Assembly: GCF_964213995.1 (NCBI RefSeq)
Contig: NC_135830.1
Coordinates: 16,058,001 to 16,122,000, forward strand
Origin: Mustelus asterias
Taxonomy: Eukaryota
Direction of reading: 5' to 3'
Length of the DNA stretch: 64,000 nucleotides
Shown: positions 2,221-64,000 of the stretch, piece by piece
Layout: every line of letters begins with the position of its first letter
How positions within the stretch are numbered: position 1 is the stretch's first letter
Notes under the pieces: model-generated
What the model saw: only the letters and a program-made list of their open reading frames with translations
Told to the model about the DNA's origin: nothing
Databases searched by the model: none
Program-made: the position numbers and the translations under genes

Positions 2221-2434
2221 TGATGGAAAGTGACATCTGTCAGAAAACCTGTCATTCTGTCATCTAAGTTGCCATTTCCGCTCATCGGTCGCACAGATAT
2301 ACATTCAAGTTCTCATTTCAGGTTTTGGCTCATTTAGTTCCACTGTTGAGGTGGAGGGTGGGTGATGCAGGCTTTATAAACCTATTACTAAGGGTCCGAA
2401 GCTGTGTTGCTGCTGTGTTCTGTATTCTGATATT

Positions 2435-2787
2435 ATGCATCATTTTCTCTTTTTGACTTCGATATTCATTCTTCTCATTCAGGCCAGTGAGGAAATGGAG
2501 GCAGTGTTTCAGGATCCACCGAGTATCAGAGTGAGTTACGGAGACAGTGTGAAGCTAAACTGCAATTATTCGACATCACATACTTCTACTGCTTTCTTCT
2601 GGTATATTCAGCACCCAGAGAAACACCCTCAATATCTTTTGGAAAAAAGGAGTACTGGAAAAAATGTGACTGCCTTTGGGAAGCGGCTGCTTTATGCTAC
2701 TTTAGATAACACAGCAAGAACTGTTCCTTTAAGCATTCACTATGCGCAGTTCTCTGACAGTGCGATGTATTACTGTGTACTGGGACA
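2435..2787 (+). CDS. TCR alpha/delta V segment, apparently functional, leader and V in one exon
   Basis: MHHFLFLTSIFILLIQA leader continuous with VFQDPP..VKLNCNY..FFWYIQ..SDSAMYYCVLG; both canonical Cys and the Trp present; TATA-like tttataaa at about 2373-2380; RSS follows. Confidence 0.9.
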
Positions 2788-2826
2788 CACAACGTTACCA
2801 GGTCAGTCGAGACCCGTACAGAAAAT
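2788..2826 (+). promoter_or_regulatory. 23-RSS of the V at 2435
   Basis: Heptamer cacaacg 2788-2794, 23-bp spacer, nonamer acagaaaat 2818-2826. Confidence 0.85.
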
Positions 2827-3221
2827 GTTCCTTCTTTCTAATATGACGTTTTGACTCCACACAAGGTTGTGATATTTTGCAACTGCAGCAGCAATGTGAT
2901 GTACATTCTATTAACTACATTCAACAGTTAAATTTGTCTGTATGTGGTTCACTATCTCGTCGGTTGGGCTTTCTCCACCTGCTCAGACTCTTTTCGCAAA
3001 TCTCTTTATGTGGTTCCCGCATGCCTGACTGTGAGGTTTGTCATTCTCTCTCTCTCGCTCGCTCCCACATTCTCAGTTTTCTTTTCTCACATTCCCGTTT
3101 TTATCGCCCCATCAGACGCATTGCACTCGGTCTCATCTCCCGTTGATTTGCAATGGTATTAATTATCTCCGAGTATTATCATCCTCTGGGTTGGCATTGA
3201 ACAGAAACTGAGCTGGATTAT

Positions 3222-6565: not shown

Positions 6566-8684
6566 CTACTTTACTATGCTTACAGCGAGACTGCCAATAT
6601 ATATTGCTGCATGTTTCAATTCTTCTCGGAATTTCCTCTGCGTCACTGCATAAATACACGTGTTAGTGCAACAGCTCAGCAGCTGTAGCATGTTTCCACT
6701 TTCTTGGCGAATGAATTTTGGGTCATTGAAATTGGATCCTCCGAAATATGCTTCATCTGTAATTTTCACATAGAGGAAATCCACAACGTATGTCATCCAC
6801 AACAGAATGAAACTTCCCGAGATGGCGAAGAGTAAAACAACAGATTTCTTCCTGTTCTTCATTTCTGGATCACTCTGATTATCTGCACTGATGTGAGCCC
6901 GGAGTCGACGGCGGGATCTACTGGCCGCCAGGATGTGTCTGACGGTCAGTGCATTAAACAACAAAATCAGAAGGAATGGCAGAATGGGATTTAATATACG
7001 TGCAAACCAGTCATAGGCTGTCCATGAGAAGGACGTGTAGAAAGCTGACTTTATATTACAAAACCAGGGCACATTGTTCATTATATAGAGCGGTTCATAC
7101 ATAAAATACCAGGGAATGCTTTTTAAACAACTCAGCAAACAGACCATTCCAATCACCACAGCTGCAGTTTTCTCGGTGCAATAGTTTGCTTGCAGTTTCT
7201 GGCAGCAAATTGCTACATAACGATCAAAGGTGAAAACGACGGTTAACCAAACAGAACTCTCCGTGGCTGCATAGATTATCACAGTACTCAGAGTACAGGC
7301 TGGAGTCAACGACATAAAACTTACTGGAAAATAAATGCCAATAATCCGGTTGAATATCACAGCGGTGACAACGACAAGGAGATCCGTCACTGCCATGGAA
7401 ACCAGATATCGAGTGATGCATTTGGAGAGACCACACCTTCCGCGGGAGAGGATCACAATAGCCATCAAGTTAACTGAGAGCAAAAGCAAAATTAAAGTTG
7501 TAAATTTATTCAACAAATTCCAAGCACACGCATGGGTGCTGCGGGTTTTTTGTGACACTTTTGCTGGTTTATCTTCGTTATGCAAGACAGCTATTCTTGG
7601 CTTTTCAAGGTTAATTATATTTCATAAAGAGCTACAAGCGCAGACTCCATTTATGCCGCAAATTTAACGCTAAGGGTGTCTCAAGTCGCTTCACAGGAAA
7701 GCAATGCAGCAAAATTTGACACCTAACAACATGAGGCGATATCAAGTGAAATGCTGAATAACTTGACAATGAGAGCACTTGACACTTAAGGGAACTATAT
7801 AATGAGCAGAGTGAGGAAGAAAGGCAATGGCGGCAATTGCAAAGTTTGGGACCGAAAGGCTGTAGATCTCCGGGTTGCATGTAAAATTCGGCATTCAAGC
7901 TTTGGACCATGTAACAGATAAGCAGAATAGCCTGTAAATACGGTTGTCATATTAGTTACATCTGTGTGGTTAAAATGTATAATGTGATAAGGATTTGGTT
8001 TGGCTTGTTAGGATTCCACGGGAATATTTTCAGTAAGTATGATGTGTCAAATTAACACAATTTAAGGAGCATCAGCTGTGTTTTCATCAGAAATCCTGCT
8101 TGCTGGAAAAATACATTTCCAATCTGTTGAGCAATGACACTAATTGTTCCGTAATGAGAAGTGAAAGAAAAGGATATATATTGTCTGGAGTTTCGAAGAT
8201 CTTGTTGAAACAAACAAACTTCTCGAAAGGCTTGACAGAGTAAATACTGGAAGGTTGTGCCCGCTGATTTTGGAATCATGCCCAAAGATTGTATTGCTGG
8301 AAATGTTTTCTCACGTTACCCCCTGTCGCTGAATGCCCAGGAACTATAGGTTACAAAGATATGAAAAACCTCACCTCGGTATACACATACTGGCAAGAAC
8401 AGCCACAGAGTATTGAATGTGTCAGAGACTTAATGAGTAAGGCTTAAGTTTAAATAAAATACATATTTAAGTGATGAAAAGACAGGCTACCACTGAGTAA
8501 TAATGTTTTAGAAGAAACCTGGAAACAATTATGTCATGTTCTTTATTACCATAATGAGCGCTAACTTCATAAATCAATGATGCATCAAGTTAATGATTTA
8601 GTACCACGACTTACCCGGAACTCCAATGGCAGCAAGAATTGGATAGTAAATGGCATAAACTACACCAGATATTCGCCCGTGCAT
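6566..8684 (-). CDS. Class A GPCR, GPR139/GPR142-like; exon 1 8615-8684, exon 2 6566-7473, 325 aa
   Basis: Exon 1 MHGRISGVVYAIYYPILAAIGVP+G ends at a gtaagt donor. Exon 2 follows a ttgctctcag acceptor (VNLMAIVILSRGRCGLSKC...TFDRYVAICC...NTCIYAVTQRKFREEL). The phase-1 join is in frame (978 nt), with seven hydrophobic segments and no stops. Confidence 0.88.
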
Positions 8685-11896: not shown

Positions 11897-12380
11897 ATGG
11901 GAATCCTTCTTGTTTTCACCCTGTGTGCCTGTTTACCCTGATGAGTACCGATCAAACTAACCCACATTGTGTGGATTGAATATAAAGTTGCTTCGTGTCC
12001 ATCTCAATTACAGACACTGTCTCGGATTTTAGCCCCTTTGTTTGGTTCGGCTCTGATGGTCCATTAAACTCTCTGTGTTTAATTTCCAGGATCTTTCAAT
12101 CAGCCAGTGACACAGAGCCTGGCAGCGTTGACCAGGAAGGAGTGTCAGTCTCTTACCATCACCTGTGTTTTCTGTGAAGTTCATGATTTAGAAAATGGTC
12201 ATTTTTTCAGACAAACCCAGACCGGGACGGAGCAGGAGCGCGTCACCAGCGGAGGGAGATTTATTGTATTGGTGAATAAAGCAGAAAAGACATTTTCACT
12301 GGAAATTCGGGATGTGAGAGTTGAAGACAGTGCCACCTATTACTGTAACGTTCAGCACTGGTACTACTCACATAGGACAC
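11897..12380 (+). pseudogene. NAR-TCR V (IgNAR-like), cassette 1; leader about 11897-11939, V exon 12090-12380
   Basis: MGILLVFTLCACLP leader with broken donor (ccctgatgagt vs ccccgtgagt in cassette 2, giving TGA). V: QPVTQSLAALTRKECQSLTITC...ERVTSGGRF...EDSATYYCNVQHWYYSHRT, with a VNAR-type short FR2/CDR2 and an FR1 Cys. Confidence 0.88.
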
Positions 12381-12408
12381 CGCATTCGGAGAGAGTTCGA
12401 CAAAAACC
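12381..12408 (+). promoter_or_regulatory. 12-RSS of NAR-TCR V cassette 1 (heptamer mutated)
   Basis: cgcattc + 12 bp + acaaaaacc; aligns with cacagtg-12-acaaatact in cassette 2. Confidence 0.75.
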
Positions 12409-12742
12409 TCAGGATAATCAAAACAGTAATTCCCAGCAATTCCCATGTTCGGTAACTTGACTTGTCGGTTTGATGTTATTCCCAGTTCAATCTAGTTTAA
12501 TTTCATTTTAATTTCCACCTATCAGTTATAATTCTTCCAGGTTTTTCGCCATTAATAAGAATCTTGCATCTCTGCTCCTGTTCCTGGGATATTTTACCAG
12601 GAACTCAGAGAGTCACAAGGAAAAGTTTGATCCAATGAGGTTTTTTTTAAACAACCAATGTTCATTATTGATTCAAATCCCCTGAATAATCGAGAAACAC
12701 TGATTGCTCGGTAATGGCTGCTCGGCAGTTTGAGGTGTCAAT

Positions 12743-12833
12743 CATTCTTGTGCTGGGCTGACTGAGAGCGCTGACACTGTGGGGAGAATGGAGATTGCAG
12801 ATGGGTCTGGGGCGGTGGTGACTGTCACAGCCG
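12743..12833 (+). pseudogene. NAR-TCR J cassette 1 (23-RSS 12743-12781, J 12782-12833), splice donor lost
   Basis: cattcttgt-23-cactgtg, then DGSGAVVTVTA; donor is ataagt instead of gtaagt. Confidence 0.88.
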
Positions 12834-13128
12834 ATAAGTGACTCCTAATCCTATTGTGTTGCAGCCTGTTTAGGTTAGTGTTCACCGTCAGTTTAAATTC
12901 GTTATCAGCATCACTTCAATTCTCTGCTTCTAAAGCAGGGTGCTTTCCAGTGGAAGATTTTCAATTGCAGATTTAGACTTGGGAGCAGATTAAGAAACCG
13001 AAGAGTCTCACAACTCGAAGAGTCAGGCTATGAGACCAGATTGAAGCAATGTGAGAACCCGAAGGACAGGTATCCCACAGGGAAGGAGGTTCAGCTCACT
13101 CGATCTGGACTATTATTGGTTTAAGGAA

Positions 13129-13675
13129 CAGTAAAATGTCTCACTACGCTAGATTAAAGGCCAACGGGTTTATTTGGAATCACGAGCTTTCGGAGCGCTG
13201 CTCCTTTCTGAGGTGAGTGGAGAGTTGGGTTCACAACACGGCATATATAGACAGAAACACAATTGCAAGACAATGGTTGGAATGCAAGTCTTTACAGGTA
13301 ATCAAGTCTTTACAGGCGCAGAGAACGCGAGTGGAGAGAAGAATAATCACAGGTTAAAGAGGTGCGAATTGTCTCAAGCCAGGACAGATGGTAGGACTTT
13401 GCAAGCCCAGGGAAAATGATGGAGGTTACATGTATTGTGACATGAACCTAAGATCCCGGCTGAGGCCGTCCTCAAAGATTCGCATTCCAACCATTACCTT
13501 GGAATTGCGTCTATGTGTATATGTGCCGTGTTTGCAAACCCAACTCTCCACTCACCTGAGGAAGTAGCTGCACTCCGAAAGCTCGTGATTCCAAATAAGG
13601 CTGTTGGACTTTAACCTGGTGTTGTGCGACTTCTTACCGTGCCCACCCCATTCCAACGCCGGCATCTCCAAATCA
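13129..13675. mobile_element. Penelope-derived element with inverted termini and hammerhead motifs
   Basis: 12-bp TSD tggtttaaggaa (13117-13128, 13676-13687); termini match the Penelope 3' end at 19500-19654; ctgagga...gaaagctc at about 13553-13587. Confidence 0.8.
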
Positions 13676-13754
13676 TGGTTTAAGGAAGGCATCGGTTAAT
13701 CCTCACAACTGCCTGCACTCTCACTCTCCTAACTGGTTTCAGTGAGCGCCCATT

Positions 13755-14075
13755 AGGGGAGGCCGTGACCAAGAGGAATTATCACTGGACAATGAATTCA
13801 AAAACACAGCTAAAGTTCTGGGAACCCGCCAGGGCAGATGGTGGAATTTCAATTCAATAAACATATCTGGAATTATGAATCTACTGATGACCATGAAACC
13901 ATTGACGATAGTCAGAAACCCCCATCTGGTTCACTGATGTCCTTCAGGGAAGGAAATCTGCCGTCTTTACCTGTCTGGCCTACATGTGACTGTAGAGTCA
14001 CACCAATGTGTCTGACTCTCAACTGCCTCTGGGTCACTGGCGACGGGCAGCGTCGACACCCAGTTCTCATCAATG
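13755..14075 (+). mobile_element. tRNA-derived SINE (second family; copies at about 20735-21120 and 37740-37825)
   Basis: Shared ...atcactggac...gatggtggaattt...gatgaccatg...gtctggcc...catgtgact motifs among the copies. Confidence 0.6.
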
Positions 14076-16479
14076 AATAAGAAGCAACTTGTGGACACAC
14101 CGAACCCTGCTTCCCGCTCCCCGCTGGGAGGAAGCGGAGCCACTGAGCACAGGATTTCTCTCTGCTCCAGGAAATGTCAATGAGCTACCGGGAGAAGCAA
14201 CCCAAAATTGCAGCGGCAGATCCAATACCTGCAGTGACAGGAAAACAGGAACATGACACAAATAGCTTCAAGAGCTAATTTTATAGTTGTAGGTGACATT
14301 TCATGCGCAATCAGTGACTAAAAATAATTACATCCTATCTGATTTTTATTTCCTTCCTCTTAACAATTATTTTGGCAGAATTCCAAAACGTTAGAATTGC
14401 ATTCTCTTCCACATATTGATCGCTGATGGTGGACAATTCTGTTTGCATTATGTTTTTTGTCGATTTCAAAAACATGCGATTGTGCTCACTGAAGCACAAT
14501 GAATCCCTCAAGAATTGGGTTGTGTCGCGGCTGAGGGTGCTGAACCGTTCCAAAGATTTTATTTTTGAGGACTAATGGAATCAATGGATTTGGAAATAGG
14601 ACGCACAGTTAGCATTAAGGTAGATGAACAGATCTGAACATTCCTGAATTGTACAGTGGGTCCCCAAGGTGGATTGGTCTACCATGTTTCTAAATTTTAT
14701 GTATCTTATTATCTGCATGAATTTCTTACACTCAGAGAATATAAATAATCAATCATGTGTATGGATATCGAAAGTTTGCAAAAGCTTTGACTTTCGGCTC
14801 TCGAAGGCCGGTAAGACATGAAAAACGGCATTGAAACACCGAACATTATGTTGTAGTTTCAAGGAGTTCCATGTGCAGAAACTGGTCCTTCGGTGGGAGA
14901 GCTGTTTCTTTCTTTAAATCATTCGTGTGACATGGCGTCGCTGGTTGGCCATCATTTATTGTGCATTCCTGGTCGCCCTTCAAATCAATGGCTGGCTAGG
15001 CCATTTTTAAGGGCAGTTGAGAGTCAATCACATTTCTGTGGCACTTTCTAAACATCCGAAATGGTTTCACGGTCAGCAGCAGATACTTAACTTCAGATTT
15101 TTAAAATTGAAGTCAAATTCCACCAACTGCCGAGGCAGGATTCGAACCAGGGCCCCAAAAGAACTGGATATTTATATATGAAATATGAAATGTCTATCAG
15201 AAGAGATAGACATGTTTAGAATATGTTTAAATCACGGGTAGATAGTTTTCTGATCGATAAGGGAATTAGGGGATATGGGGAGCAGGCGGGTAAGTGGAAC
15301 TGATTCGCTTCAGATCAGCCATGATCTTGTTGAATGGCTGGGCAGGCTCGAAGGGCCAGATGGCCTACTCCTGCTCCTATTTCTTATGTTCTTATGTTCT
15401 TATGATAGAAACATTCGGGTATATTTACACGGAGACACATCAGAATGTGAAACTCGCTCTTTGGAGAAACGGCGTGATGAATTTATGGCACAGCTTGGGA
15501 GAGAGGAATAAAAAGACACACAGCTCAGGATGTAAATGGTTATTTCGGGTTCGAGAGGTGAACGGGCGTCCGAGGACAATCTTCGACCAGCTGGACTGAG
15601 TGGCCTATTCGTGTTAAGTGGAAAGTGTAGAATGTTAAACTCAGAGACTATTGTGTTCGGAAAGAACAGGGAACAATCAGCCAATGGACTAAAAGGATTG
15701 AAATTCTCACATACCCTGAAGGCAGTTCCCAGTGAGTAACAGTAAAACCACTGCGGAAACTGAACAGACTGAACCAACCGACAACTGAGAGAAATTAGGG
15801 CAAGTTTTCATGACGGTTAGAAACCGCCATGAACAGACAGAAAACAACTCAGATGTAGAAATAAAATGAAATCAACTTGCAAATATTTCTAATGGAAGTA
15901 AAACGGTAGAATTGATGGACGGAAACAGACAAAGAGCCCAACGGCAGACAGGAGTTACCTTGTAGTGTTGAACTGCGGCCAAAGGTCGATTTTTGACCCA
16001 CAGGTATACATTGTCATTTCGGATTATTAGGTGCGGACGAAAATCTCTATTCTGTGCTGAACCTTGAGATTTACAGGTTCACAAGACTGCCCGATTTTCT
16101 TTCGGGCAATCAAATCTAGAGAGCAATTAATTCACTGAAAAGAAGAGTGAACTTTACGATTTAGTTTTCTGGTTCGCACTTCACCAATATATTTATTAGA
16201 AGATATTTAATAAAAATAGAATCATACTCCGCAAAAAAAAACACAATTCTGTCAGTAATTTGAAGGTTCTGCCAATGTACCTATTCGCTCTTCTTTGGTC
16301 CCCACTGGAATCCTGTCCTGTCCCAGAAGTTTCTCCCGCTCAATTACCGTTTGAAAGTTAATGCTAAGTCTGCTCCCAGCATCAGCCCTTCCGCATGCCA
16401 TTCAGGTGACTGCAATTCTCTGTGCAAAAAGGTCTGAAGATCTGCCACGCTTGTTTATTTCCAATTCAAATTCACAGAA

Positions 16480-16780
16480 TCCCAACAGGGCAGAAAGAGG
16501 TCATTCGGCCTATCGAGTCTGCACCGACCACGTCCCACCCAGTCCCAGGCTCTATTCCCATAACCCCACATATTTGCCTTTCTAATCTCCCTCTGGCACG
16601 AGGGTCAATGTCGATCAACGTAATCTGCACATTTTTGGACTGGGGGAGGAAGCCAGAGCACCCGGAGGAAACCCAAACGGTCACGGGGAGAACAGGCAAA
16701 CAGTGACCCGAGCGTGAAATTGAACCTGGGTCCCTGGCGCTGTGAGGCAACATTGGTAACTGTGTCACTGCGCCGCCCCC
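16480..16780 (-). mobile_element. HE1-like SINE in the J-to-Vdelta intron
   Basis: Reverse complement of the SINE at 33245-33590. Confidence 0.8.
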
Positions 16781-16887
16781 AAATTCAATTAAACAAATTG
16801 CTGCAACAGCCAGGTATTAACCCGATTGACAAGTTTCCAGGATAAACGGCGACGAAACAAACAATTCATTTTATTTCTACACTGCAG

Positions 16888-17193
16888 ATTCCAGCTCACC
16901 TGTGTCACCAAGTTCCCTTCTACAAACATCTGCTGCCGGCGACACGGTTATGTTAAGCTATGAATATTCAGGTCTCTGTCAGGACACAGTACACTGGTAC
17001 CGTCAGACCCGAGGACAGACTCCGAAGTGCCTGCTTCAGACACACACTTCAGGAGACGAGAATAAAGCAAACGCTGTCGCGGGGAGAATTTCTGCTTCTA
17101 TCGAATCTTCAGTCAAAATCAGCCGGTTAAAGATCTCCAAACTTCAACTGAGCGACTCCGCTGTTTATTACTGTGAAATGAGTTGGCGCACAG
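16888..17193 (+). pseudogene. Supporting TCR delta V (leaderless), cassette 1
   Basis: ctgcag acceptor; SSSPVSPSSLLQTSAAGDTVMLSYEYSGLCQDTVHWYRQ...SDSAVYYCEMSWR. First canonical Cys replaced by Tyr; CDR1 Cys retained; RSS heptamer is catagtg. Confidence 0.88.
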
Positions 17194-17242
17194 CATAGTG
17201 TCACAGAACACGGAGACAGCTGTACAAAAACCTGAACATGGT

Positions 17243-19654
17243 TCAGAGGAATTCATCAGGCGAATGAGGCTGCGGGAGTTCTTCCACAAACCCCAAGAGG
17301 CCAACAGCGAACACAATGAGACAGCTAATGAACCGGAACAGCAGACAGAGAGACCCGCAGTGCAACCGAAGAGGAAAGAGTCGAATTGGACTCCTCCGGA
17401 AGGCCGCTGCCCTCGACTTGACATGTATGCCCAAGCCATCAGGAGGTGCGTCAACACCAAATTCATCAGCCGAACTCACAAGACAGCACCGAACATCACC
17501 CAAGCACAACGCAACGCCATCCACGCTCTCAAGACCAACCGCAACATTGTCATCAAACCAGCAGACAAAGGAGGGGCCATCGTCATACTGAACAGAACGG
17601 ATTACTGCAAAGAAGTGCACCGACAACTAAACAACGAGGAACACTACGGAGAGTTACCCACAGATCCGACCAAAGAACACACCCGTCAACTCAACACTCT
17701 GATCAAAACCTTTGATCCGGACCTTCAGAGCACCCTCCGTGCTCTCATCCCACGTACTCCACGCGTTGGAGATCTCTACTGCCTCCCAAAAATACACAAG
17801 GCAAACACACCCGGCCGTCCCATCGTTTCAGGAAACGGAACCCTGTGCGAGAACCTCTCCGGCTATGTCGAGGGCATCTTGAAACCCATTGTACAAAGAA
17901 CCCCCAGCTTTTGTCGCGACACTACGGACTTCCTACAGAAACTCAACACACGTGGAGCAGTTGAACCAGGAGCACTCCTCGTCACAATGGATGTCTCGGC
18001 ACTCCACACCAGCATCCCCCACGATGATGGCATTGCTGCAACGGCCTCAGTACTCAATGCCGTCAACTGCCAGTTTCCAGATGCAATTTTACAACTCATC
18101 CGCTTCATCCTGGATCACAATATCTTCACCTTCAACAGCCAGTTCTTCATCCAGACACACGGAACAGCCATGGGGACAAAATTCGCACCTCAATATGCCA
18201 ACATCTTCATGCACAGGTTCGAACAAGACTTCTTCACCGCACAGGACCTTCAACCGATGCTCTACACTAGATACATCGATGACATTTTCTTCCTTTGGAG
18301 CCATGGTGAGCAATCACTGAAACAACTCTATGATGACATCAACAAGTTCCATCCCACCATCAGACTCACCATGGACTACTCTCCGGAATCGGTTGCATTC
18401 TTGGACACACGCATCTCCATTAAGGACGGTCACCTCAGCACCTCACTGTACCGCAAGCCCACGGATAACCTCATGATGCTCCACTTCTCCAGCTTCCACC
18501 CTAAACACGTAAAAGAAGCCATCCCCTACGGACAAGCCCTCCGTATACACAGGATCTGCTCGGATGAGGAGGATCGCAACAGACACCTCCAGACGCTGAA
18601 AGATGCCCTCATAAGAACAGGATATGGCGCTCGACTCATCGATCAACAGTTCCGACGCGCCACAGCGAAAAACCGCACCGACCTCCTCAGAAGACAAACA
18701 CGGGACACGGTGGACAGAGTACCCTTCCTCGTCCAGTACTTCCCCGGAGCGGAGAAGCTACGGCAACTCCTCCGGAGCCTTCAACATGTCATTGATGAAG
18801 ACGAACATCTCGCCAAGGCCATCCCCACACCCCCACTTCTTGCCTTCAAACAACCACGCAACCTCAAACAGACCATTGTCCGCAGCAAACTACCCAGCCT
18901 TCAGGAGAACAGTGACCACGACACCATACAACCCTGCCACAGCAACCTCTGCAAGACGTGCCGGATCATCAACATGGATGCCATCATCTCATGTGAGAAC
19001 ACCATCTACCAGGTACACGGTACCTACTCGTACAACTCGGCCAACGTTGTCTACCTGATACGCTGCAAGAAAGGATGTCCCAAGGCATGGTACATTGGGG
19101 AAACCATGCAGACGCTACGACAACGGATGAATGAACACCGCTCGACAATCACCAGGCAAGACTGTTCTCTTCCTGTGGGGGAGCACTTCAGCAGTCACGG
19201 GCATTCAGCCTTGGATCTTCAGGTAAGCGTTCTCCAAGGCGGCCTTCACGACACACGACAGCGCAGAGTCACTGAGCAGAAACTGATAGCCAAGTTCCGC
19301 ACACATGAGGACGGTCTAAACCGGGATGTTGGATTTATGTCACATTATCAGTAACCCCCACAGCTTGCCTCCTGGACTTGCACAATTTCACAAGCTGTAC
19401 TGTCTGGAGACAATACACATCTCTTTAACCTGTGTTGAATGCTCCCTCCACCCACATTGTCTGTACATTTAAGACCTGGCTGGCTGTAGAGATTTGCATT
19501 CTAATCAGTATTCTGTAATTTGATTTCTGTGTCTGTGCCCTGTTTGAGAACAGAGACCACTCCATCTGACGAAGGAGCATTGCTCCGAAAGCTTATGGTA
19601 TTTGCTACCAAATAAACCTGTTGGACTTTAACCTGGTGTTGTGAGACTTCTTAC
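17243..19654 (+). mobile_element. Penelope-like retroelement, 5'-truncated, uninterrupted RT + GIY-YIG ORF (to 19354)
   Basis: KPADKGG, PKIHK..PGRPIVS, GTAMG, RYIDD and VVYLIRC..WYIGET motifs; hammerhead motif in the 3' terminal region. Confidence 0.95.
19562..19598 (+). ncRNA. Minimal type I hammerhead ribozyme motif (Penelope-associated)
   Basis: ccat-CTGACGA-a-ggagc(att)gctcc-GAAA-gctt-atgg: stem I, catalytic core, stem II and palindromic aagctt stem III. Confidence 0.8.
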
Positions 19655-19966
19655 GATGATTACAGACACAGTGATTTGGTAGACGGAAAAAGCTTTACAA
19701 AAACCTGAACATGGTGATGATTACAGACAGAGTGATTTGGTACACGGAAACAGCTTTCCAGAAACCTGAACATGGTGAGAATTACAGACATTGTGATGAA
19801 GAACACGGAGAGAACTGTACAAAGGCCTGAATATGGTGAAGTTTACAGGCACAGTGATTTCGAACACGGAAACAGCTAGACGGAGACCTGAACATTGTGA
19901 GGATTACAGACATAGTGATACAGAACACGGAGAGCTGAACAAAAGCCTGAAGATGAATTACAGATT

Positions 19967-20271
19967 CTTGTAGTCCTCACCATGTCCATGTTTTTGCACA
20001 ACTCTCTCCTTGTTCTGTATCACTGTGTCTGAAATCCTCACCATGTTCAGGTTTCTGTCCAGCTCTCTCCGTGTTCTGTCTCACTGTGTCTGTAAGCCTC
20101 ACCATGTTCAAGTTTCTGTACGGCTCTCTCCGTCTTCTGCATCACTGTGTATGTAAGCCTCACCATGTTCAAGTTTCTGTACAGCTCTCTCCGTGTTCTG
20201 TCTCACTGTGTCTGTAAGCCTCACCATGTTCAAGTTTCTGTACGGCTCTCTCCCTGTTCTGCATCACTGTG
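19967..20271 (-). repeat. Tandem 61-bp 23-RSS array, 5 units, behind the intact supporting Vdelta
   Basis: CACAGTG heptamers at 20265-20271, 20204-20210, 20143-20149, 20082-20088 and 20021-20027; all spacers 23 bp; nonamers acagaaact x3, acagaaacc, gcaaaaaca; 22-bp linker tgaacatggtgaggcttacaga. Confidence 0.95.
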
Positions 20272-20577
20272 CTGTGTGCCGACTCAGTGCACAGTAATAC
20301 ACAGCGGAGTCGCTCAGTTGCAGCTTGGAGATCATTAACCAACTGATTTTTTCGACTGGGTCGACAAAAGCAGAAATTCTCGCCCCGGCAGCGTTTTCTT
20401 TGCTCTCCTCGCCTGATGTGTGTCTCATAAGCAGGTATTTTGGGGTTTGTCCTGGAGACTGACGGTACCAGTACAGTGTGTGTTGACAACGTCCCTGATA
20501 TTCGCAGTTTAAAGTAATGGTGTCGCCAGCAGCACACGTTTGGAGAGACGAATTCTGTGCCACAGATGAACTGGATT
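20272..20577 (-). CDS. Supporting TCR delta V (leaderless), cassette 2, apparently functional
   Basis: ttctgcag acceptor in phase with the J donor; ESSSSVAQNSSLQTCAAGDTITLNCEYQGRCQHTLYWYRQ...SDSAVYYCALSR; CDR1 Cys as in NAR-TCR supporting Vdelta; consensus heptamer. Confidence 0.9.
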
Positions 20578-22674
20578 CTGCAGAACCAATAAAATAATGC
20601 ACAATATTTCTATGATGCCATTACCTGCGTTGCATGTTAGTTTGCCCGGGGAAACATAATCGCGTCAATAGCTGACCATTTTGCCGCAATTGTTTCATTG
20701 AAGGGTGTTCGACATGTATTAACTATAATTGAGGAGACGGTGCCATAGTGGTATTGTCACTGGATTAGTTAATCCAGAGATTTAGTAATCCACGGAATGC
20801 CCTGGGGACACGGGTACGAACGGTACCACGGCCGATGGTGAAATTTGAATTTCAATTCAATCTTGAATTAATTCCAAAAAAAATGTTGAAGCAATGTCTA
20901 ATGATGACCATGGAACCATTGCCACTTATCGTTAAAACCACATCTGTTTCTCGAAGGTCCTTTTGGGAAGAAAATCTGCCATTCGTATCTGGTCTGGCCG
21001 CCATGTGACTCCAGGTCCACAACAATATGGTTGCCTCTTAAATGCCCTCTAAATGGGCTTCACAAGCCACCCAGTTCAAAGGCAATTAGGAACACCCACA
21101 TCCCGAGAATGAATTGAACAAATGGCAAAAGAGCGAGGGGCAAATATTTAGATGATTTTTATTTTATCACACAGCGAATTTTGCTCAATTGGATCCTTTG
21201 GAGATGTGATTTTGGGAACATATTCAGCACTCATTTTAAAACCGCCAATGGAAGAAATATACAGAATCAGATTAGAATTCCGGTGGTTTTGAAGAGTAGG
21301 AAGGTAACAGAGGTAAAGTTCAGTAGCACCTGCAAATAATCGCCACTTGGTCAGAATGATGTCCTTTTCCGGTTTCTCATTTTATGTTTTATATTTAGTG
21401 TCTGCTTCTGTGTATATTGGCGATTTACAAACCTGAGGAAATTACATGAAAGTTCACTTTTCTCACTATAACAATTGCTGTCCAGAGTTGATTGACTGAG
21501 AGTAACCCTACCTTTTTATATCCTGGGTCACATCAAGATTCAAGCGAAGATGGTCATACTCGCCCAGCGAAACTAATTATGCGAAAATGATATTGCATAT
21601 CTGTGTCAAAGATCAACCTTTGACTACCGTTTAACTCTTTGCACAGTTTCGTCCATCGATTCTACAATTTATATTATATATTAGAATGATTTTCAGTTAA
21701 TACCAGTGGATTTCTAAATCTGAGTTGTTCTCTTTGTGCTGCTTGCGATTTCTTGCCACCATGAGAACCTGTCCCATACACTCTCCAATATCAGTTGAGA
21801 TCAGCATGCTCAGTTTCCCCGATTGACTTGCTCACTGTTACTCACTGTGAAAATTGCCTTTTCAAGGTGCTTGAGATTTTCAATTCATTCCATCCATTGG
21901 TTGATTGTTCCCCATGCTTTCTGGGCAGAATCCCCTAAAAAGAGGTCTTTACCTAAAAAGAGGTCTGGGCAGAATCCTCTCTGTATTTTATATTATATAG
22001 ACTCTACAGAACAGAAGTAGGCCAGTCGGCTCACAGTACGCTTGTCCTTGCACTGCACACGTACCTACGCCCCTGTCACACTCGATCCCTAACGAAACCT
22101 TTGTACACTGAGCACTGTGTCCTTCTCCCTCCTCGATTTTTCACGCCGTCAGAAAAATTCCTTACGCCATTTACTGCAACCACTCCATCTGGTAGCGCCC
22201 TCCACATGCCTCCTAATTTCTTTTTCTTTTATCTCACTGGCATCATATTAAATGTTTCTTTAATCTGAATCGTTTTCTCCACACGTACATTAATGAACCT
22301 ATAAATTAATGCTAAAGATTTATATCAACAACAAAAACTGAAAAATGTTGGCAAACCTCAACAGGTCTGACAGCATCTGTGGAGACAGAATAGAGTCAAC
22401 GTTTCCAGTCGGGATGACCCTTCGTAAGAGCCACAGAGGGAATCAAAGTTGACACTAGGACAGAAGTCATAGCTTCAAAATGTGGACCCGACTCCAGTTT
22501 CCTATTATGCTCCCAAATCTAAAACTGCAATTGAAAATCTTCCACAGAAACCCCCCTTCCCCCACGCTGCTATTGTAGTCACAGCGGATTGAAGAGAGGC
22601 AGACTACAAGAATGAACTGACGGCGAAAACGAACCAGGACATTCTGCAACACGGGGGGATTTGGAGTCACTTAC

Positions 22675-22766
22675 CAGCTGAGACAGTCACCACCGTCCCA
22701 GACCCATCTGTAAATCTCCACTCTCCCCACAGTGTCAGCACTCTCAGTCAGCCCAGTACAAGAATG
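22675..22766 (-). CDS. NAR-TCR J cassette 2 (J 22675-22727, 23-RSS 22728-22766)
   Basis: cattcttgt-23-cactgtg, then GEWRFTDGSGTVVTVSA and a gtaagt donor. Confidence 0.9.
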
Positions 22767-23097
22767 ACTTACACGTCAAACTGATGGGGAAAAAATTACC
22801 GAATAGTCAGCGTTTATCAATTATTCAGGGGTTATAGATCAGCAATGAAGTATGATAGTTTTATAATTCCCATTGGAACAAACTGTTCCTTGGGACACTC
22901 TGAACTCTTGGCAAAACGGCCCAGGAACGGAGCGGAGATGGACGCTTCGTAGAAATGGAATAAAAAAGTTAAAGAAAGATAACTGAACGGAGGAAATTAC
23001 AACGAAATTAAACCATGTTGCAACGATAATAACCACAACCCGACAAGCTGTGGTCCGTGTCCTGGAAATTATTGCTTCGCTTGTTCAGAAATACTTA

Positions 23098-23125
23098 AGT
23101 ATTTGTTCTCCTCTCTTCCACTGTG
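23098..23125 (-). promoter_or_regulatory. 12-RSS of NAR-TCR V cassette 2
   Basis: cacagtg + gaagagaggaga (12 bp) + acaaatact. Confidence 0.88.
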
Positions 23126-23607
23126 GTGTCCCATGTGTGTAGTACCAATGCTGAGCTTTACAGTAATAGGTGGCAGTGTCTTCAATTCTCATGTCCCGAA
23201 TTTCCAGCGAAAATGTCTTTTCTGCTTCATTCACCGACACAACAAACCTCCCTCCGCTGGAGATCCGCTCCCGCTCTGTCCCAGTTTGGGTTTGTCTGAA
23301 GAAATGGCCATTTTCTAAATCGTAAACACCATTGAAAACACAGGTGATGGTGAGAGACTGACACTCCTTCCTGGTCACCGCTGCCGGGCTTTGAGTCACT
23401 GACTGACTGAAACATCCTGGAAATTAAACACAGAGAGTTTAATGGAGCATCAGAGCCGAACCGCACAACGGGGCTAAAACCCCAGACAGTGTTTGTAATT
23501 GAAATGGACTGGGGCAGCTTTATGTTCAATCCACACAATGTGAGTTAGTTTGATCGGTACTCACGGGGTAAATAGGCACACACGGTGAAAACAAGGAGGA
23601 TTCCCAT
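23126..23607 (-). CDS. NAR-TCR V (IgNAR-like), cassette 2, apparently functional; leader 23565-23607, V exon 23126-23416
   Basis: MGILLVFTVCAYLP|gtgagt...tttccag|CFSQSVTQSPAAVTRKECQSLTITC...ERISSGGRFVVSVNEAEKTFSLEIRDMRIEDTATYYCKAQHWYYTHGT; open frame; TATA-like catataaa at about 23631-23638. Confidence 0.92.
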
Positions 23608-25049
23608 CGCTCTGCTGCCTGGAACTGAGGTTTATATGACGGGGAGCTGAGACTGCAGAGCTGGACTGCTCTTGGAGACTGGACCTCAGAGCTGAATTGA
23701 AATACTTCAGACCCGAACACTGGTAAGATAGGCCACGCCCATCCTTCAAATTAAGTTCAAGGATTTAAATGGTGAATGCAGCTGTGAACTTTCAGTCAAA
23801 ACTACCCGGCAGCCAGAACACAGAGACTCATCCCGCTACCCACAGCAGTGTCTGCCATGCTCTACTTGCTCTCGAGTAGATTATTTATTGTTATTAATTC
23901 AGGGGATGTGGGCTTGGCTGGCGATGGCAGCAGACATTGCCAATCTCTAATTGCCCTTGATAAGATGCTGGTGAACTGCGTTCTTGAACGGTTGCAGTCC
24001 CTGCGGTGTAAGTACACCCTCCGCACGATTCGGGAGGGAATTCCAGAATATTAACCGAGACCGACGGACAGTAAAGGAACGGAGGATATTTCTAAGTCTG
24101 GATAGTGGTGGTGTTCGCATGGCCTTCTAAATTGTAGCTGTTTTGTGTCTGAAATGAAGCGCCTAAGGAGGCTTGGTGAGTTCCTGCAGTTCATCGTGTA
24201 CATGGTACAGAAGGTTGCCACTGTGCATCGTTGGTGGAGCGAGTGAATGCTGGTGAAAGCGGCACCAATCAAACGGGGCTGCTTTGTCCTGAATGCAACG
24301 CCCTGTAAATTGGAATCTCAGTGTGCAACTTTAGAACCACCTCCTTTGTCTGAGTAAGAAGGACAGCTTCACTGGAGGCGCATCCGACTAATTGTACTTC
24401 CTGTGTTATTCAGAGCAGCTGACTCAGTTTACACTCCTTATTCGCCGGAGTCAAACAGCGGCTGATAGGATCAAATGAGATCAAACCCACAATAGAGATA
24501 TTAACTGCGAAACAGCGGGATACTTAGGAGGATTCGAACAGTTGGATTCTAGTTCGACTTCCGGAACCCTTCAAAGTCTGTGGGAAATTTAATTTTAAGG
24601 GAACAAAAATGTGAAAGAATTTATGGGTTCCCCTTTTGATTCTTGTTCTGAAGCTCGATGAGTCCTTTAGCTTGCAATAGAACGAAGTTTTGTCACATAA
24701 CTATTGAACGAGGGGTGGGTGTGTAAACAAGGAGTGAACATTGGGGCATTTAAGGGGATAATAGAGGATGGATGGATGAACGGACCGACAGTAGGATGAA
24801 TGGAGGGACGGACGGATGCGAGTTTTGAATGACCATTCACTTTGATTGAGTGAAATTTACAATAGTTTGCTGCAGTGAAAAATTAGGTAATTGGAGGGAA
24901 AGAACATTGGATGTATGTATGGAAGACGCTGAAGGTGTTGGTTCAAATTGCACTTTAAAAACTATATAGAATTCGTGCCTCTATTTATAATGTGCAAATA
25001 CAAAAACAAAAGGTTTTTTCACAGGTAAACAGGCTTCACTTGAAGTATG

Positions 25050-26923: not shown

Positions 26924-27407
26924 GTGCAGATATTCAGAGTCTGGATTGTGTTTGGGATAATTTTTGACGGTGAGGACGATTTCAACAGTGTTCCATTCAA
27001 ATTAAAGTTTTACTTTTTTGTTAATGCCCATCTTGTCTTGTTCCTGAACACATTACAAATCAGAGTGATGGAGATTCAATTCCTCAGTCCATCGCATCAG
27101 TGAGCGTGAAAGAAGCTGAAGCCGTGACTATAAAATGTATCTATAGCACTACAGAAGAAAGGTATTATGTATATTGGTACTTGCAGCAAGCAACGAAAGA
27201 GCCCCAGTTTGTTGTGTGGAGATGGTCTTGTGATGTTGTGGAATGGAAAGGCTCGGCGTTAGGAAATCGTTTTGCATCAGACCTCTAGCTGTCAGACTCC
27301 ACCACAAGATTAACCATCATGGACCTGCAACCGACTAACGCCGCCGTTTATTACTGCGCCCTGGGACTCACAGTAATAGAAAACAGTACCTACGCTGTAC
27401 AAAAACT
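26924..27407 (+). pseudogene. TCR alpha/delta V pseudogene (leader 26924-26969, V about 27059-27368, 23-RSS 27369-27407)
   Basis: Leader starts GTG rather than ATG; GDSIPQSIASVSVKEAEAVTIKCIY..VYWYLQ..RFASDL* (TAG 27286-27288)..AVYYCALG; RSS cacagta-23-acaaaaact. Confidence 0.9.
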
Positions 27408-27534
27408 GTCTTCCGATTGAAACTGCGATTCCTGCCTGGTGAGATTGTCTAAAATCTCGGAAAGGTGCAGTCACAACGAGGCTGTCAGCCACTCAAACAC
27501 ATAGAGGGGAATTCAATTACCCTCTGTTAATTGA

Positions 27535-28460: not shown

Positions 28461-29619
28461 GCAGATCGGGTAGATAATCCCAAAAACTCTTTGTCGCTTA
28501 CATCGCGCCTGTCGATGCCGGTCACATTCAGAAGCTAACTGTTTTCCATTGCACTACATTGCTTTATGATATACTGTAACATTTCCATGATTGCTGTTCT
28601 CCATCTTTTACTCAGTTCTCACCGCTTTACAACGCCCCCTCTCTAACTCCCACACAGGGAGCACAATAACAGCTGAAAATCTCGAGTTTAATGCTGCCAT
28701 CTTCACGATTTCTTAACAAGCATTTGTCAGAACAAAATGCTCTTGTTTGCAAACAGCCAGATAAATTTCTGTTGAAATCATATATTTCATCAGAATTTTT
28801 TCCTGATTGGTATAATTGACATCCTGTGGCTTTCATTGTCCTTTGCTCAAAGAATAGCAACGAGGTCATTGAAAACGCTCTTGTGTAAAAGGTGGATGAC
28901 GAGAAGGTGGAGGATGAAGCTTGAGCAGGTTAATGAGACAAATGACCTTAAAGCTGTTTGGAATCCAGTCAAATGTTGCACGCTAGGAATTAGGTACAGA
29001 AACCCCAATTTGGTTATTTGAAAAGTTAGCGCCCCAGGGCCGGGCCTAAGGCCCAGTCAGGCAATTGGCCTTGTTTGGGCGAATGTTGAGTGGGAAACCG
29101 AAAATGATGTGTGCAGGCCCGCAAGTTGCAATATTTATTATTGCTGCCAACCATGACGGACAGAGAAGGACGGCCGAGTCCCTCCAGTCTGCCCACAATA
29201 AAAATGACATAAATCTGAAGTGCAGTCACTATTGCAATGGAGGAAAGAGTCGCTATGAACAGAGCAAGATCCCTCGTCACGTGGTCATCTGTTGCAGATT
29301 GTCGACTGGCGTTTGAATGTCTTGGAAAATTGCCCTGCTTTAGAGGCTAGTGCGGTGAAATGTTTAGGATCCTCCAGAAAGGCCAGACGGAGCCTCTATT
29401 TAGTAGTTTATCTGAGCAATTCACTGCGGAGACGCTCGGACTCCATTACCACTGGCAGTGGAAGTGGCAGCTAGAATGTGCGCTCAGGTCTCTGAAGGGA
29501 CACCTGAATCCACAGTTTCATGAATAAGAGGCGATTGAATTGAGAAATGTAACAGTTAACACGGAACTGCAGATAGAACTTGAACTGGCGACACCACCTG
29601 TGCCAGTTCTGTTTGATGA

Positions 29620-30094
29620 GGTTTTTGTACAGCGATAGATGACCTCTGTGTCTCTCAACACGCAGAAATAGACAGCGATATCTTGGATTTCTGCTCGAGT
29701 AATAGTTAAAGAAAAAATATTTTCTGCATTCGTCTGACTGGCCTCGAATTTTCCCTTGGCAAAACCTGCGTCTCTTCTGTTGCTTCAATCTCGGTACAAA
29801 ATAAAATGCGGAGCCTGGTCCGTGTGCTCTCTGTAAAGAAAGGGATTTCTGTGACTTGTCGTGTAGCTGCAGTCCATTTTCATTCTGTCTCCTTCAGTAA
29901 TAGACAATTCAATCTGAGGTTGCGCCACAGAATCTGCTTGAATCAACCCTGAATAAAATATAAGGAAAGTTTAATGCAACACTGATTGCTGAGTCCATTA
30001 ACATCACAATACTGCCAGCAGATAAGAAGTTATTGTTTTACATACCGAACACCAGCCACAATATAACCAGATGACAAAACCAGAAGAGCCCCAT
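29620..30094 (-). pseudogene. TCR alpha/delta V pseudogene (leader 30046-30094, V 29651-29948)
   Basis: MGLFWFCHLVILWLVF|gtatgt; ADSVAQPQIELSITEGDRMKMDCSY..(Trp missing)..YRD*..QDIAVYFCVLR; RSS cacagag with only a 15-bp spacer and acaaaaacc. Confidence 0.9.
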
Positions 30095-31401
30095 TATTTC
30101 TTGGCCAGTGATCTCCTTGAATCGTATGTTTGGAGATATAGATATATTTACTATTGCAATCCTTTAAATTAAGCGACTGTTGTACAGAAAGCTAAAACAG
30201 AAGGAGAGGAAGAGTCCCGGGAAATTGTTTACCAATATAAAGTCGCAATGTGATAACTGGGTAGCAGCATGTTAACAAGAGTGCTGACTGGTCAGATACC
30301 ATCTCTCTAGTTCCTGTTCCACCATCTGATCGCGTCACTGCTCTGGGCGGCACTTGTGTTTGGAATTCAGCCCCGCCCCTTCCCTCCTCACGCTACTTGT
30401 TCAGAAAAGAATACATTTGGCCATGTAATCTGTCATTGAACTTTATTATAGATGCAAAGAAATGAAAATGGTGAATGAGAGAAACTGGCAGAGCGGCAAC
30501 AGTCCTGAAATAGAGGAAAAATGCAGAGCAAACAAGACACAAATGAAAAAGGAAAGGATGAGTTATGCAAACGGAGGAATAAATTATGTGCTGATATTCA
30601 TAAGGTGCCATATATTTTTGTGTTGTTCTATCTCTTCGCGAGTTATCGGCGATTATAGCAAGGCCACTATTTATTGTCCATCGCGAACTTCACATAAATA
30701 CGTTGTGCTCTCATCCTGAGTACCACGCCAGTGTGACTGTTGAAGGTGCTTCCACGATGTTATTCTGGAGGCACTTCTAAGATTTTGAACGAGAGACAAA
30801 AACAGGAACGGTTGTTTATGCCGGAGTTAGGATTGGATATGATTTATTGAATCACTGGATAAAACGACACAGAAGGAAAGCATTCGGCTAAGTTGTTTGT
30901 ACTTCTAATCTGCAAGAGCTATTCCTTCAGATCAGATACATATTATTTGTCCTCTACTTTGGTCTTTTTCCAACGTGCTGTTGCTTCTATTTATCACTGC
31001 ATATGCCTCCACCAGTCTTTCAGGCAGTGTTTTGAAGATCATAAGGCGTGCTTTGAACATAATCATAAATTTCTCCAGCATTTCTATTTACCGATGATCT
31101 TTAATCAGTATCTTCTCATTGTCATCCCTGCTGCCCATGTAAATAATTCCTCGTCATATATTAGTTAAAACCCTTTCATTAATTTTGACACTTCATTTTA
31201 AATTCACGTGAACCTTCTCTTTTCCAAAGGAACAATTCAGTTTCTCTATTCACTAAGCGGAAGTGATGCCTACAATCCTCGACAACAATTTGTCAGAACA
31301 AAACTGTTAGTTTTTTAAATCATCATATAAACGAGGGATTTTATTTTTCGTGGTTGGAAGATGCCTTTGTTGAACTCCCCGGTTTCGTTGTGTTTTAACG
31401 A

Positions 31402-31732
31402 GGTTTTTGCATGGGTCGCAGCCGGTTTGAAGCACCATGATACTCAATCCACAGAAATAGAAGACGCTGTCTTTAGTCTCCATTTGCAAAACTTGACAAA
31501 GAGAAAACCTGATATTGAATGAAATATCGAGCATCGAATTTTCCTTTGGAAAACACGGTGTTCTTGCGCCTGGTGTTATCCCGATACAATATAAACTGGA
31601 GCGGCTGGTTCGGGTACAGCCCGTGCTAGTAGCAATCCGGATCAACGGAACTGGAGTTCAATTGCACATCAGCTCCCTCAGGTACCTTTAACTTAGGTTG
31701 ACATTGTGTAACCGAATTCCATTGTATTTTAC
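31402..31732 (-). pseudogene. TCR alpha/delta V pseudogene, related to the V at 29651
   Basis: NSVTQCQPKLKVPEGADVQLNS..CY*..QPLQFILYRDN..FSKGKF..frameshift..KDSVFYFCGLS; RSS catggtg-22-gcaaaaacc. Confidence 0.85.
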
Positions 31733-39700: not shown

Positions 39701-39981
39701 CATTAATTGTATCGTAGCTCGATGCATTTCCATTCTCTGGTTTCCAGCCCACCACCGACTTGTAGAGCAAGAGCACAAAAGTGGCCTGATTGTCTTTTGG
39801 AAGAATGAGTCGAGTATGGTTCTGTGCTGGATCTGCCTGCCAGGTTGGATTTTGGGTGGTGGTTTCATCTGAGGTTAACTTGGTTTCCTCTGTGTGTGTG
39901 TTTGAGAGGCTGACAGCTCAGATAACATCTGGCCATTAAGCAATCCTCAATCGTCACGGGATCGTTCCTCCAGTGTAAGCA

Positions 39982-40153
39982 GGCTTTTGCACGAAGGTGG
40001 GCCTTCTTTCTATCATTGTGCGTCTGAACACGCAGTAATAAGCGGCAGCATCAGTCAGGCTCAGGTCTAATATATTTAAACTGATGAATTTCTTCGAGGC
40101 CTGGAGATCTACATAAAACCGACTTTTAGAAACATCTGCTTTATATTCATAAC
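39982..40153 (-). pseudogene. 3' half of a TCR V (40021-40153) with an intact 23-RSS (39982-40020), cut by an ERV LTR
   Basis: YEYKADVSKSRFYVDLQASKKFISLNILDLSLTDAAAYYCVFR; cacaatg-23-gcaaaagcc; LTR terminus tgtcagggg begins at 40154. Confidence 0.9.
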
Positions 40154-40751
40154 TGTCAGGGGAAGTTTCTTGCTTCATACCACCAAAAAAGACAAGCAGA
40201 CATGAGTACAGTACAAACAGGCAACACAAGCTTTATTCCCTGTCCAAATAAAAAGCCACAGGCTTGGGGGAAGACAGCTGCTAGCCAACAGCTTTCTGTG
40301 GCCATTGTGCGCTTTACAATTTATAGGGTTTTGAACTTCGCGCCAAATGTATGGTAATGGGCTCATTCAAAGTGGTTGCTGATAACATGAATGGAACCCA
40401 CGTGGGTTATTGTCATTCACTACAAGTTATGTGATCAGTAACTACTAAAACAAATAACACAAAGCAGTGACACAAAAGCGAAGTATTGAAAAGCCATTAT
40501 AGATAGTTGGAGTTGATCTGTGGCTAATGATGAAGTGATCATATTTCCCCTGGGCTGATCTCATTCTGGAGGGTTCCCTTTGTGATTTGAAGTTCTTGCA
40601 TAATCGAATCAGTTGAGCTATTGTCTATGTTTTCCCTGCCTGGAGTCTACAGTGATTAAGACTGAAGTGATTAGGGGGTGCAAGGAGCCTCTCCATGAGT
40701 CATTGTATTGCTGTGAGGTGCTGACAACATTTCCCATCATTCATTACCGGG

Positions 40752-63200: not shown

Positions 63201-64000
63201 ACAGTTTCTGTTCCCATCTTATGCCCCCTAATTCTTGCCTAATCGCATCATAATTACCTCTTCCCCAATTGTAAACCTTGCCCTGCCGTACGGCCCTATC
63301 CATCTCCATTGCAATAACAAAAGACTCCAAATTGTGGTCACTATCTCCAAAGTGCTCTCCCACAACCAAATCTTAGACTTGGCCCGGTTCATTTCCCAGT
63401 ACCAAATCCAATGTGGCCTCACCTCTTGTCGGCCTATCCCCAGATTGTGTCAGGAAACCCTCCTGCACACACTGCACAAAAACTGCCCCATTCGAACTAT
63501 TTGACCTACAAAGGTTCCAATCAATATTTGGAAAGTTAAAGTCCCCCATGACAACTACCCTGTGATCCCCACATATATCCATAATCTGCTTAGCAATTTC
63601 TTCCTCCACATCTCTATTACTATTTGGGGGCCTACAGTAAACTCCTAACAATGTGAGCGCTCCTTTCCTATTTCTAACTTCAGCCCATATTACCTCAGTG
63701 TGCAGATCCCCCTCGAAGTGCCTTTCCGCAGCCGTTAAACTATCCTTGATTAACAATGCTACTCCTCCACCTCTTTTACCAGCTTCCCTACACTTACTGA
63801 AACATCTATGCTCTGGAACGTCCAACAACCATTCATGTCCTTGTTCTACCCACGTCTCCGTAATGGCCACAACATCGCAGTCCCAAGTACCAATCCACAC
63901 CCCAAGTTCATCTACCTTGTTCAGGATGCTCCTTGCATTGAAGTAGACACACTTCAACCACCTTCTACTGGTACCCACCCTTGACCTTGATACCTTCCCC
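60275..64000 (-). mobile_element. CR1 LINE(s): short 3' piece 60275-60585 and a long ORF2 copy 60586-64000
   Basis: YFNARSI..ITETW..GDFNFP endonuclease; DFSKAFDKV and FADD RT. Confidence 0.92.
61200..61699 (-). mobile_element. Penelope 3' fragment with an intact hammerhead motif (61293-61329), nested in CR1
   Basis: Reverse complement of about 19190-19654; TSD acagctaa at 61192-61199 and 61700-61707. Confidence 0.88.

Follow-up and report, generated by a model that had tools for sequence, protein, structure and literature searches.

The V-D fusion found in the NAR-TCR genes of Mustelus asterias is real, inherited and amplified. NAR-TCR is the doubly rearranging TCR-delta of cartilaginous fish, expressed as a V-V-C chain and reportedly described by Criscitiello in 2006. 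In the 64,000-nucleotide stretch of DNA analysed here (the window), the NAR-TCR cassette on the minus strand, referred to as cassette 2, is very probably such a fusion, as judged by the homology of its non-coding parts. V and D are fused, the V RSS and the V-D interval are gone and the D 3′ RSS is kept, which is the arrangement of partially germline-joined VD-J segments.

The fused cassette in the window

NAR-TCR is characterized, in PMC1845163, by an IgNAR-like V with a leader, a cysteine in the a-b loop and no canonical Trp, together with a supporting V-delta that carries a CDR1 Cys. Cassette 2 was correctly assigned to this family by the initial annotation. Its V has a leader (MGILLVFTVCAYLP), the a-b loop Cys (RKECQSL), a Phe in place of the canonical Trp of WYRK (GHFFRQ) and a supporting V-delta, and VNARs head its PDB matches (best E 7.5e-19). 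Among named proteins a Mustelus asterias gene model (P0002, 98% identity) comes nearest. The features of cassette 2 and of its damaged counterpart, cassette 1, are as follows.

23565..23607 (-): leader exon of the NAR-TCR V, cassette 2 (MGILLVFTVCAYLP), GT donor intact
23416-23126 (-): whole NAR-TCR V exon, open, ending DTATYYC-KAQHWYYTHGT
23138..23416 (-): V-derived part of this exon, open frame
23139..23150 (-): HWYY codons, V-encoded, last base 13 nt from the heptamer
23126..23137 (-): 12-nt junction CACATGGGACAC, 2-4 nt (CA or CACA) and a D-like core of ~8 nt, TGGGACAC
23098..23125 (-): 12-RSS (CACAGTG-12-ACAAATACT), derived from a D 3′ RSS and matching D 3′ spacers
22767..23097 (-): RSS-J interval of 331 bp, homologue of D-J intervals, with neither D nor heptamer
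22728..22766 (-): 23-RSS of the NAR-TCR J (CACAGTG-23-ACAAGAATG), facing V
22675..22727 (-): NAR-TCR J segment (GEWRFTDGSGTVVTVSA), GT donor intact
20272..20577 (-): supporting TCR-delta V exon of cassette 2, open over 306 nt, AG acceptor, CDR1 Cys (QGRCQH)
19989..20271 (-): five tandem 23-RSS copies of 61-bp period behind the supporting V
11897..12833 (+): cassette 1, a dead copy with the same V-D junction and defects in donor, heptamer and J
16888..17200 (+): supporting V of cassette 1, dead, first Cys changed to Tyr, heptamer CATAGTG

The RSS consensus and the 12/23 rule are the background against which the signals of cassette 2 are read. Beyond the second Cys of the V (23162-23160), the heptamer CACAGTG (23125-23119) is followed by a 12-bp spacer and the nonamer ACAAATACT (23106-23098). 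The window has one perfect heptamer with a 12-bp spacer and a nonamer of at most 2 mismatches, where 200 first-order Markov simulations of its sequence gave 0.005 on average. The nonamer of the J, ACAAGAATG, departs from the consensus at 3 positions and lies 331 bp from the nonamer of the 12-RSS. Neither strand of the interval holds an exact heptamer. Two 7-mers in it begin with CAC and are within 2 mismatches of a heptamer, and neither is accompanied by a nonamer (6-7 of 9 positions mismatched). The layout read earlier, with KAQHWYYTHGT, a 12-RSS, a 23-RSS J at 331 bp and no heptamer between them, is confirmed on the minus strand.

The supporting V of cassette 2 has no leader within the 220 bp upstream that were examined, carries its own 23-RSS and stands behind a J whose GT donor is intact. 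The 23-RSS copies at 19989-20271 (-) face a second stack of the same 61-bp period at about 19667-19900 (+), head to head. Across 19 VD cassettes the copies behind the supporting V number from 1 to 5.

Sister loci and the D side of the junction

A search of the same genome with the NAR-TCR V gave at least 87 matches among the best 150 of 815 candidates scored. Seventy loci were fetched, leaving aside partial pieces that were mostly the second halves of broken genes. They comprise 38 loci with the window layout, 24 with a conventional V, 2 IgNAR-like clusters, 1 other joined V and 5 that were left unassigned. A free D is kept in 15 of the 24 conventional-V loci, in the order V-22RSS, 12-D-12 and J with a 22/23-RSS; the free Ds are 13-19 nt long and lie about 420-470 bp beyond the Cys codon. 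One-off RAG-type joints occur in 6 of the 24 (L021, L026, L043, L048, L049 and L055), and in 3 no D is present in the DNA fetched. The separate V, D and J of the N-terminal domain are thus a property of 15 sister cassettes and not of cassette 2. The initial annotation had allowed that a 12-RSS V without a D might be the norm of the family; this fails, since the 15 cassettes of the same genome hold a free 12-D-12. In L034, L037 and L038 the 22-RSS is intact, no D or J lies within the 2.2 kb fetched, and repeat-like sequence begins less than about 400 bp away. The joined V of L066 (G000:C71, 2929530-2929781) is a distant one that runs in frame straight into the J motif FGRG, apparently as a fully joined V-J exon.

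The origin of the 12-RSS is seen from the sequence that surrounds it. The 331-bp interval of the window aligns with the D-J intervals of 13 of 14 conventional loci at scores of 86.5-126.5 (65-68% of aligned columns), the fourteenth being the inverted locus L048 (-14). With each of the 14 V-D intervals its score falls to between -5 and -46, and the shuffled D-J maximum is 12.5. The spacer of the 12-RSS matches D 3′ spacers at 6-8 of 12 positions and D 5′ spacers at 4-5 of 12, for 13 of the 13 free Ds compared. Therefore the V 22-RSS, the V-D interval and the D 5′ RSS were lost and the D 3′ side was kept, which amounts to a V-D fusion. The fusion proposed in the initial annotation is supported by both lines, the homology of the interval and the D 3′-type spacer.

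The piece added to the V is 10-12 nt long, because coding in unjoined Vs stops 25-27 nt past the Cys codon. It consists of CA or CACA followed by TGGGACAC and resembles the ends of free Ds, TTGGGACAGT in L044 and TGGGACCACT in L052. The left break is 0-4 nt away from where V coding normally ends, and the right one lies within a D of 13-19 nt. In cassette 2 the CA or CACA bases may be V end, N/P nucleotides or a remnant of the heptamer. The comparison of the V extension with free Ds, suggested at the outset, gives a divided answer: about 8 nt of the extension are D-like, and HWYY does not come from D.

It could also be supposed that no D was ever fused, either because a V-12RSS facing a 23RSS-J without D is an old or ancestral form of NAR-TCR or because the V RSS lost spacer bases. 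The tree of the RSS, interval and J is unrooted and does not fix the direction of change, and a nested weak RSS (CACATGG-24-nonamer, 4 mismatches in all) uses the same nonamer as the 12-RSS of cassette 2. This reading is very unlikely and is largely refuted by the interval alignment. Both the spacer and the whole downstream interval are of D 3′ type, there is no V-D interval, the heptamer follows a D-like core, and a distant shark displays a translated 22-RSS. The latter is the gene model P0064 (labelled Chiloscyllium punctatum), which reads KARYWYYT-HSDRPRLPVAQKL and is like the translated 22-RSS of L034, HSGRPRLPAVQKL, a likeness at the protein level only. Since P0064 reads as L034 does, the 22-RSS state looks ancestral.

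Inheritance and formation of the join

The junction is found at the same position in 38 of the 70 fetched loci, including decayed copies, and the intervals of the subfamilies are 69-72% alike. Because the position is held across diverged subfamilies and their decayed members, the junction is inherited and old. In the tree of the RSS, interval and J, which took 23 of the 38 VD loci after near-duplicates were dropped, the 23 VD rows and 14 conventional rows lie on two sides of one 100/100 branch. Resolution is poor in the V-framework tree (64 rows), where the VD label has to change twice, so that this tree allows one origin and does not show it.

Cassette 1 shares the junction, as NVQHWYYSHRT, and has a perfect nonamer at the same spacing as in cassette 2. 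This part of its described layout stands. The working 12-RSS ascribed to it does not, because the heptamer position (12381-12387) reads CGCATTC. Its leader donor is disrupted, its J is 1 nt shorter and AT replaces GT after the J. With the broken donor, heptamer, J and supporting V, cassette 1 was rejected as a second working example. The junction common to both cassettes supports the earlier view that the fusion is older than the duplication that produced them. The 12 window-like copies, spread over window 11897-23607 and 11 other contigs, all stand opposite a dead copy of the cassette-1 type at a distance of 8-11 kb, so that the convergent pair was duplicated as a unit. Assembly redundancy may account for some of these copies.

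The presence of the fusion outside this assembly is suggested by P0058, a protein from an outside contig. It has the junction of L013 (YWYYTHGT-PQWNGEGQIPK) and a longer, different CDR1, its V being identical at 79-81 of 102 positions to the nearest of 62 loci compared, which hints at the fused layout in a second species. Among the 32 records listed (11,616 others lie outside them), only record 8 of run X1 spans the junction with at least 31 letters on each side. This contig bridges the junction over 22844-23223 with 1 other letter, and run X1 may be the assembled sample. No HGT junction was seen in the named non-Mustelus gene models, which display the junction poorly. The models P0006 (labelled Carcharodon) and P0007 (Cetorhinus) have the same 17-residue stretch between V and the J motif (KAQYRYRCGSTVSKDAY), which may reflect germline joining of NAR-TCR in mackerel sharks or else one shared mis-splice.

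These findings bear on the idea that the join is a somatic rearrangement, in which lymphocyte DNA was built into the assembly. One-off RAG-type joints in 6 of the 24 conventional-V loci mean that the assembly may hold somatic events of this kind. An explanation of the window junction in these terms is nevertheless extremely improbable, as the same junction recurs in 38 loci that differ in their introns by up to about 30% and have decay in common, the X1 contig bridges it (with the reservation on that run given above), and P0058 has it beside a divergent V. The one-off joints take several forms. L021, L049 and L055 have D-J joins behind an unjoined V, and in L026 a D is joined to an unrelated heptamer-bearing sequence. 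In L048 (G000:C110, V 114493-114759) a stretch of 785 bp from the V RSS through D to the J RSS is inverted and is identical to L041 at 784 of 785 positions. At its ends the V coding end abuts the J RSS, and on the other side a perfect heptamer-to-heptamer signal joint is formed with a foreign 12-RSS.

The V-D join probably goes back to a single event in an ancestral germ cell, with RAG as the presumed agent. Such a join would have removed the V 22-RSS, roughly 350 bp of V-D interval and the D 5′ RSS, leaving the V end untrimmed and, next to it, 2-4 extra bases and a D remnant of about 8 nt. The joined cassette was amplified afterwards. Both breaks fall where RAG joining puts breaks, and PMC2193156 and PMC4279169 document RAG-like joining in the germ line for the Ig genes of sharks. 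A separate and very recent V-D join in L043 (G000:C110, V 84783-85049) is built almost alike, from an untrimmed V, a C, the trimmed D TGGGACAGT and a 12-RSS. Its 12-RSS lies 36 nt from the Cys codon, against 37 in the window V, and each of the 600-bp flanks of L043 differs by 1 base from the unjoined L044.

A non-RAG germline deletion that began in the V heptamer or spacer and reached into the D would likewise end in a V with the 12-RSS of a D; microhomology at TGGG (ATGGG in the V spacer, TTGGG in the D core) may have guided it. The junction begins with CAC(A) and then ATGGG, which matches the starts of the V heptamer and V-RSS spacer (CACCGTG or CACAGTG, then ATGGG), and in L059 and L060 it reads CACAG ATGGG. 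Because the start of the junction fits in this way, the deletion keeps an appreciable though minor probability. For the same reason the complete loss of RSS sequence, taken as a sign of recombinase action in PMC2193156, is an ambiguous guide here. The microhomology version needs a second loss of 2-4 nt inside the heptamer, and V coding ends of 25 to 27 nt, often CA or ACA (L034, P0064), account for the CA with no heptamer involved. The RAG-type join of L043, moreover, gives the same D break at nearly the same length. No P nucleotides can be assigned at the joint. The junction ends in AC, and 12 of 13 free Ds end in GT.

With V and D fused in the germ line, a T cell would finish the N-terminal domain by one 12/23 join, VD to J, instead of two. 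The completed NAR domain would then be spliced to the supporting V-delta, for which rearrangement of V-delta to D-delta to J-delta would still be needed as normal. Both the expression of the fused cassette and its effect on CDR3 are presumed from its sequence.

CDR3 core, intactness and related systems

The aromatic HWYY core had been ascribed to the fusion. This is not supported, since unjoined Vs with their own 22-RSS (7 of 24 loci) end in KAQYWYW, KAHYWYW, KADYWYY or KAQHWYG right at the heptamer. Together with the bamboo-shark model P0064, which also carries the core before a 22-RSS, they indicate that HWYY is V-encoded and old, and its derivation from D was rejected. Its position differs between the two kinds of gene: the core stands at the coding end in unjoined Vs and 13 nt inside the new coding end in the fused V. 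Junctional trimming acts at coding ends. HWYY would therefore usually survive it, and the chains would share a fixed CDR3 start and one variable junction. The functional idea of the first reading survives in this changed form, in which the fusion would shield HWYY from trimming. The VD-J junction and the entire rearrangement of the supporting V-delta would still diversify the chain, and semi-invariance, meaning a repertoire in which one CDR3 sequence or length dominates, is a hypothesis.

Many of the close copies are undamaged. In 14 of the 18 closest VD copies every part is intact, from the leader and splice sites through the V, the two RSSs and the J to the supporting V; these are 12 distinct DNA and 7 distinct V protein sequences, some of which may be assembly duplicates. 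The defects among the 18 are the missing ATG and donor of L004 and L005, the missing acceptor of L007 and the supporting V of L008, which lacks the first Cys. Damage affects 24 of the 38 VD loci, including all 20 outside the 18 closest. Between two intact subfamilies the V exon is 90% identical with an uncorrected pN/pS of 0.28-0.37. Comparisons with dead copies give 0.37, 0.42 and 1.09, and since two of these three are also low, the ratio is weak evidence of current function. It points to long-term constraint on the VD V exons, which does not in itself prove present use.

Rearranged products were sought in three ways. Contig sets on 19900-23800 come from 4 runs of one study, none on record as RNA, and among 15 of the 23 joints listed there was no V-J or J-to-supporting-V joint; contigs of this kind can demonstrate that a joint exists but not that it is missing. 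A joined VD-J product was likewise not found among the J-region matches (best 40 of 60 candidates scored), 37 of which (at least 86% identity) lie beside V matches at about germline spacing, as read off two tables and not computed. The matches of the protein searches included no cDNA-derived NAR-TCR, the named ones being genome gene models. These were left unused as evidence on the repertoire because their apparent CDR3s often read through RSS bases.

Cassette 2 resembles NAR-TCR in its leader and IgNAR-like V, its own J and its leaderless supporting V-delta with a CDR1 Cys. It differs in the first domain, where V and D are fused and one junction is left; PMC1845163, PMC6795676 and PMC12227049 describe NAR-TCR as the product of separate VDJ rearrangements, with V, D and J apart. 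The VD-J clusters of shark IgH are similar in having V and D pre-joined and J split, with the join attributed to RAG in germ cells (PMC4279169, PMC6795676 and PMC2193156). They are, however, antibody clusters with C exons of their own, and it is for Ig that the germline-joined feature is described in PMC6795676 and PMC4279169, whereas the window holds a TCR-delta cassette. The Vmu-j of marsupial TCRmu is a fully joined, invariant supporting domain thought to be retrotransposed, according to PMC7615758 and PMC3457774. In contrast to Vmu-j, the partly joined domain of the window is N-terminal and presumed to bind antigen, has its leader intron in place and cannot be completed without RAG. Literature searches brought up no account of a NAR-TCR with V and D joined in the germ line; an earlier mention is possible.

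It is conceivable, if rather doubtful, that an old RAG join in shark germ cells gave rise to a selected, amplified and expressed subset of NAR-TCR that is innate-like. If so, this would be the first germline-joined V in a TCR outside marsupial TCRmu and the first on an antigen-binding domain. Its protected (H/Y)WYY CDR3 stem and single variable junction would go with a conserved ligand and with occurrence in at least one other shark. The ligands of NAR-TCR are called unknown in PMC7615758. With a NAR-TCR family that is partly joined, amplified and intact, germline editing by RAG would reach a TCR locus as well. A NAR-TCR of limited diversity with a predictable CDR3 start would be a handle for clonotype tracking and for ligand searches.

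The window contains other TCR alpha/delta-like V segments, several of them frameshifted, at 2366-2851 (+), 27025-27417 (+), 29521-29893 (-), 31310-31657 (-) and 39957-40232 (-). An open frame of 351 aa at 6569-7621 (-) resembles by eye a class A GPCR, with a DRY-like motif. At 61843-63999 (-), also by eye, LINE-type endonuclease and reverse-transcriptase frames with stops can be recognized.
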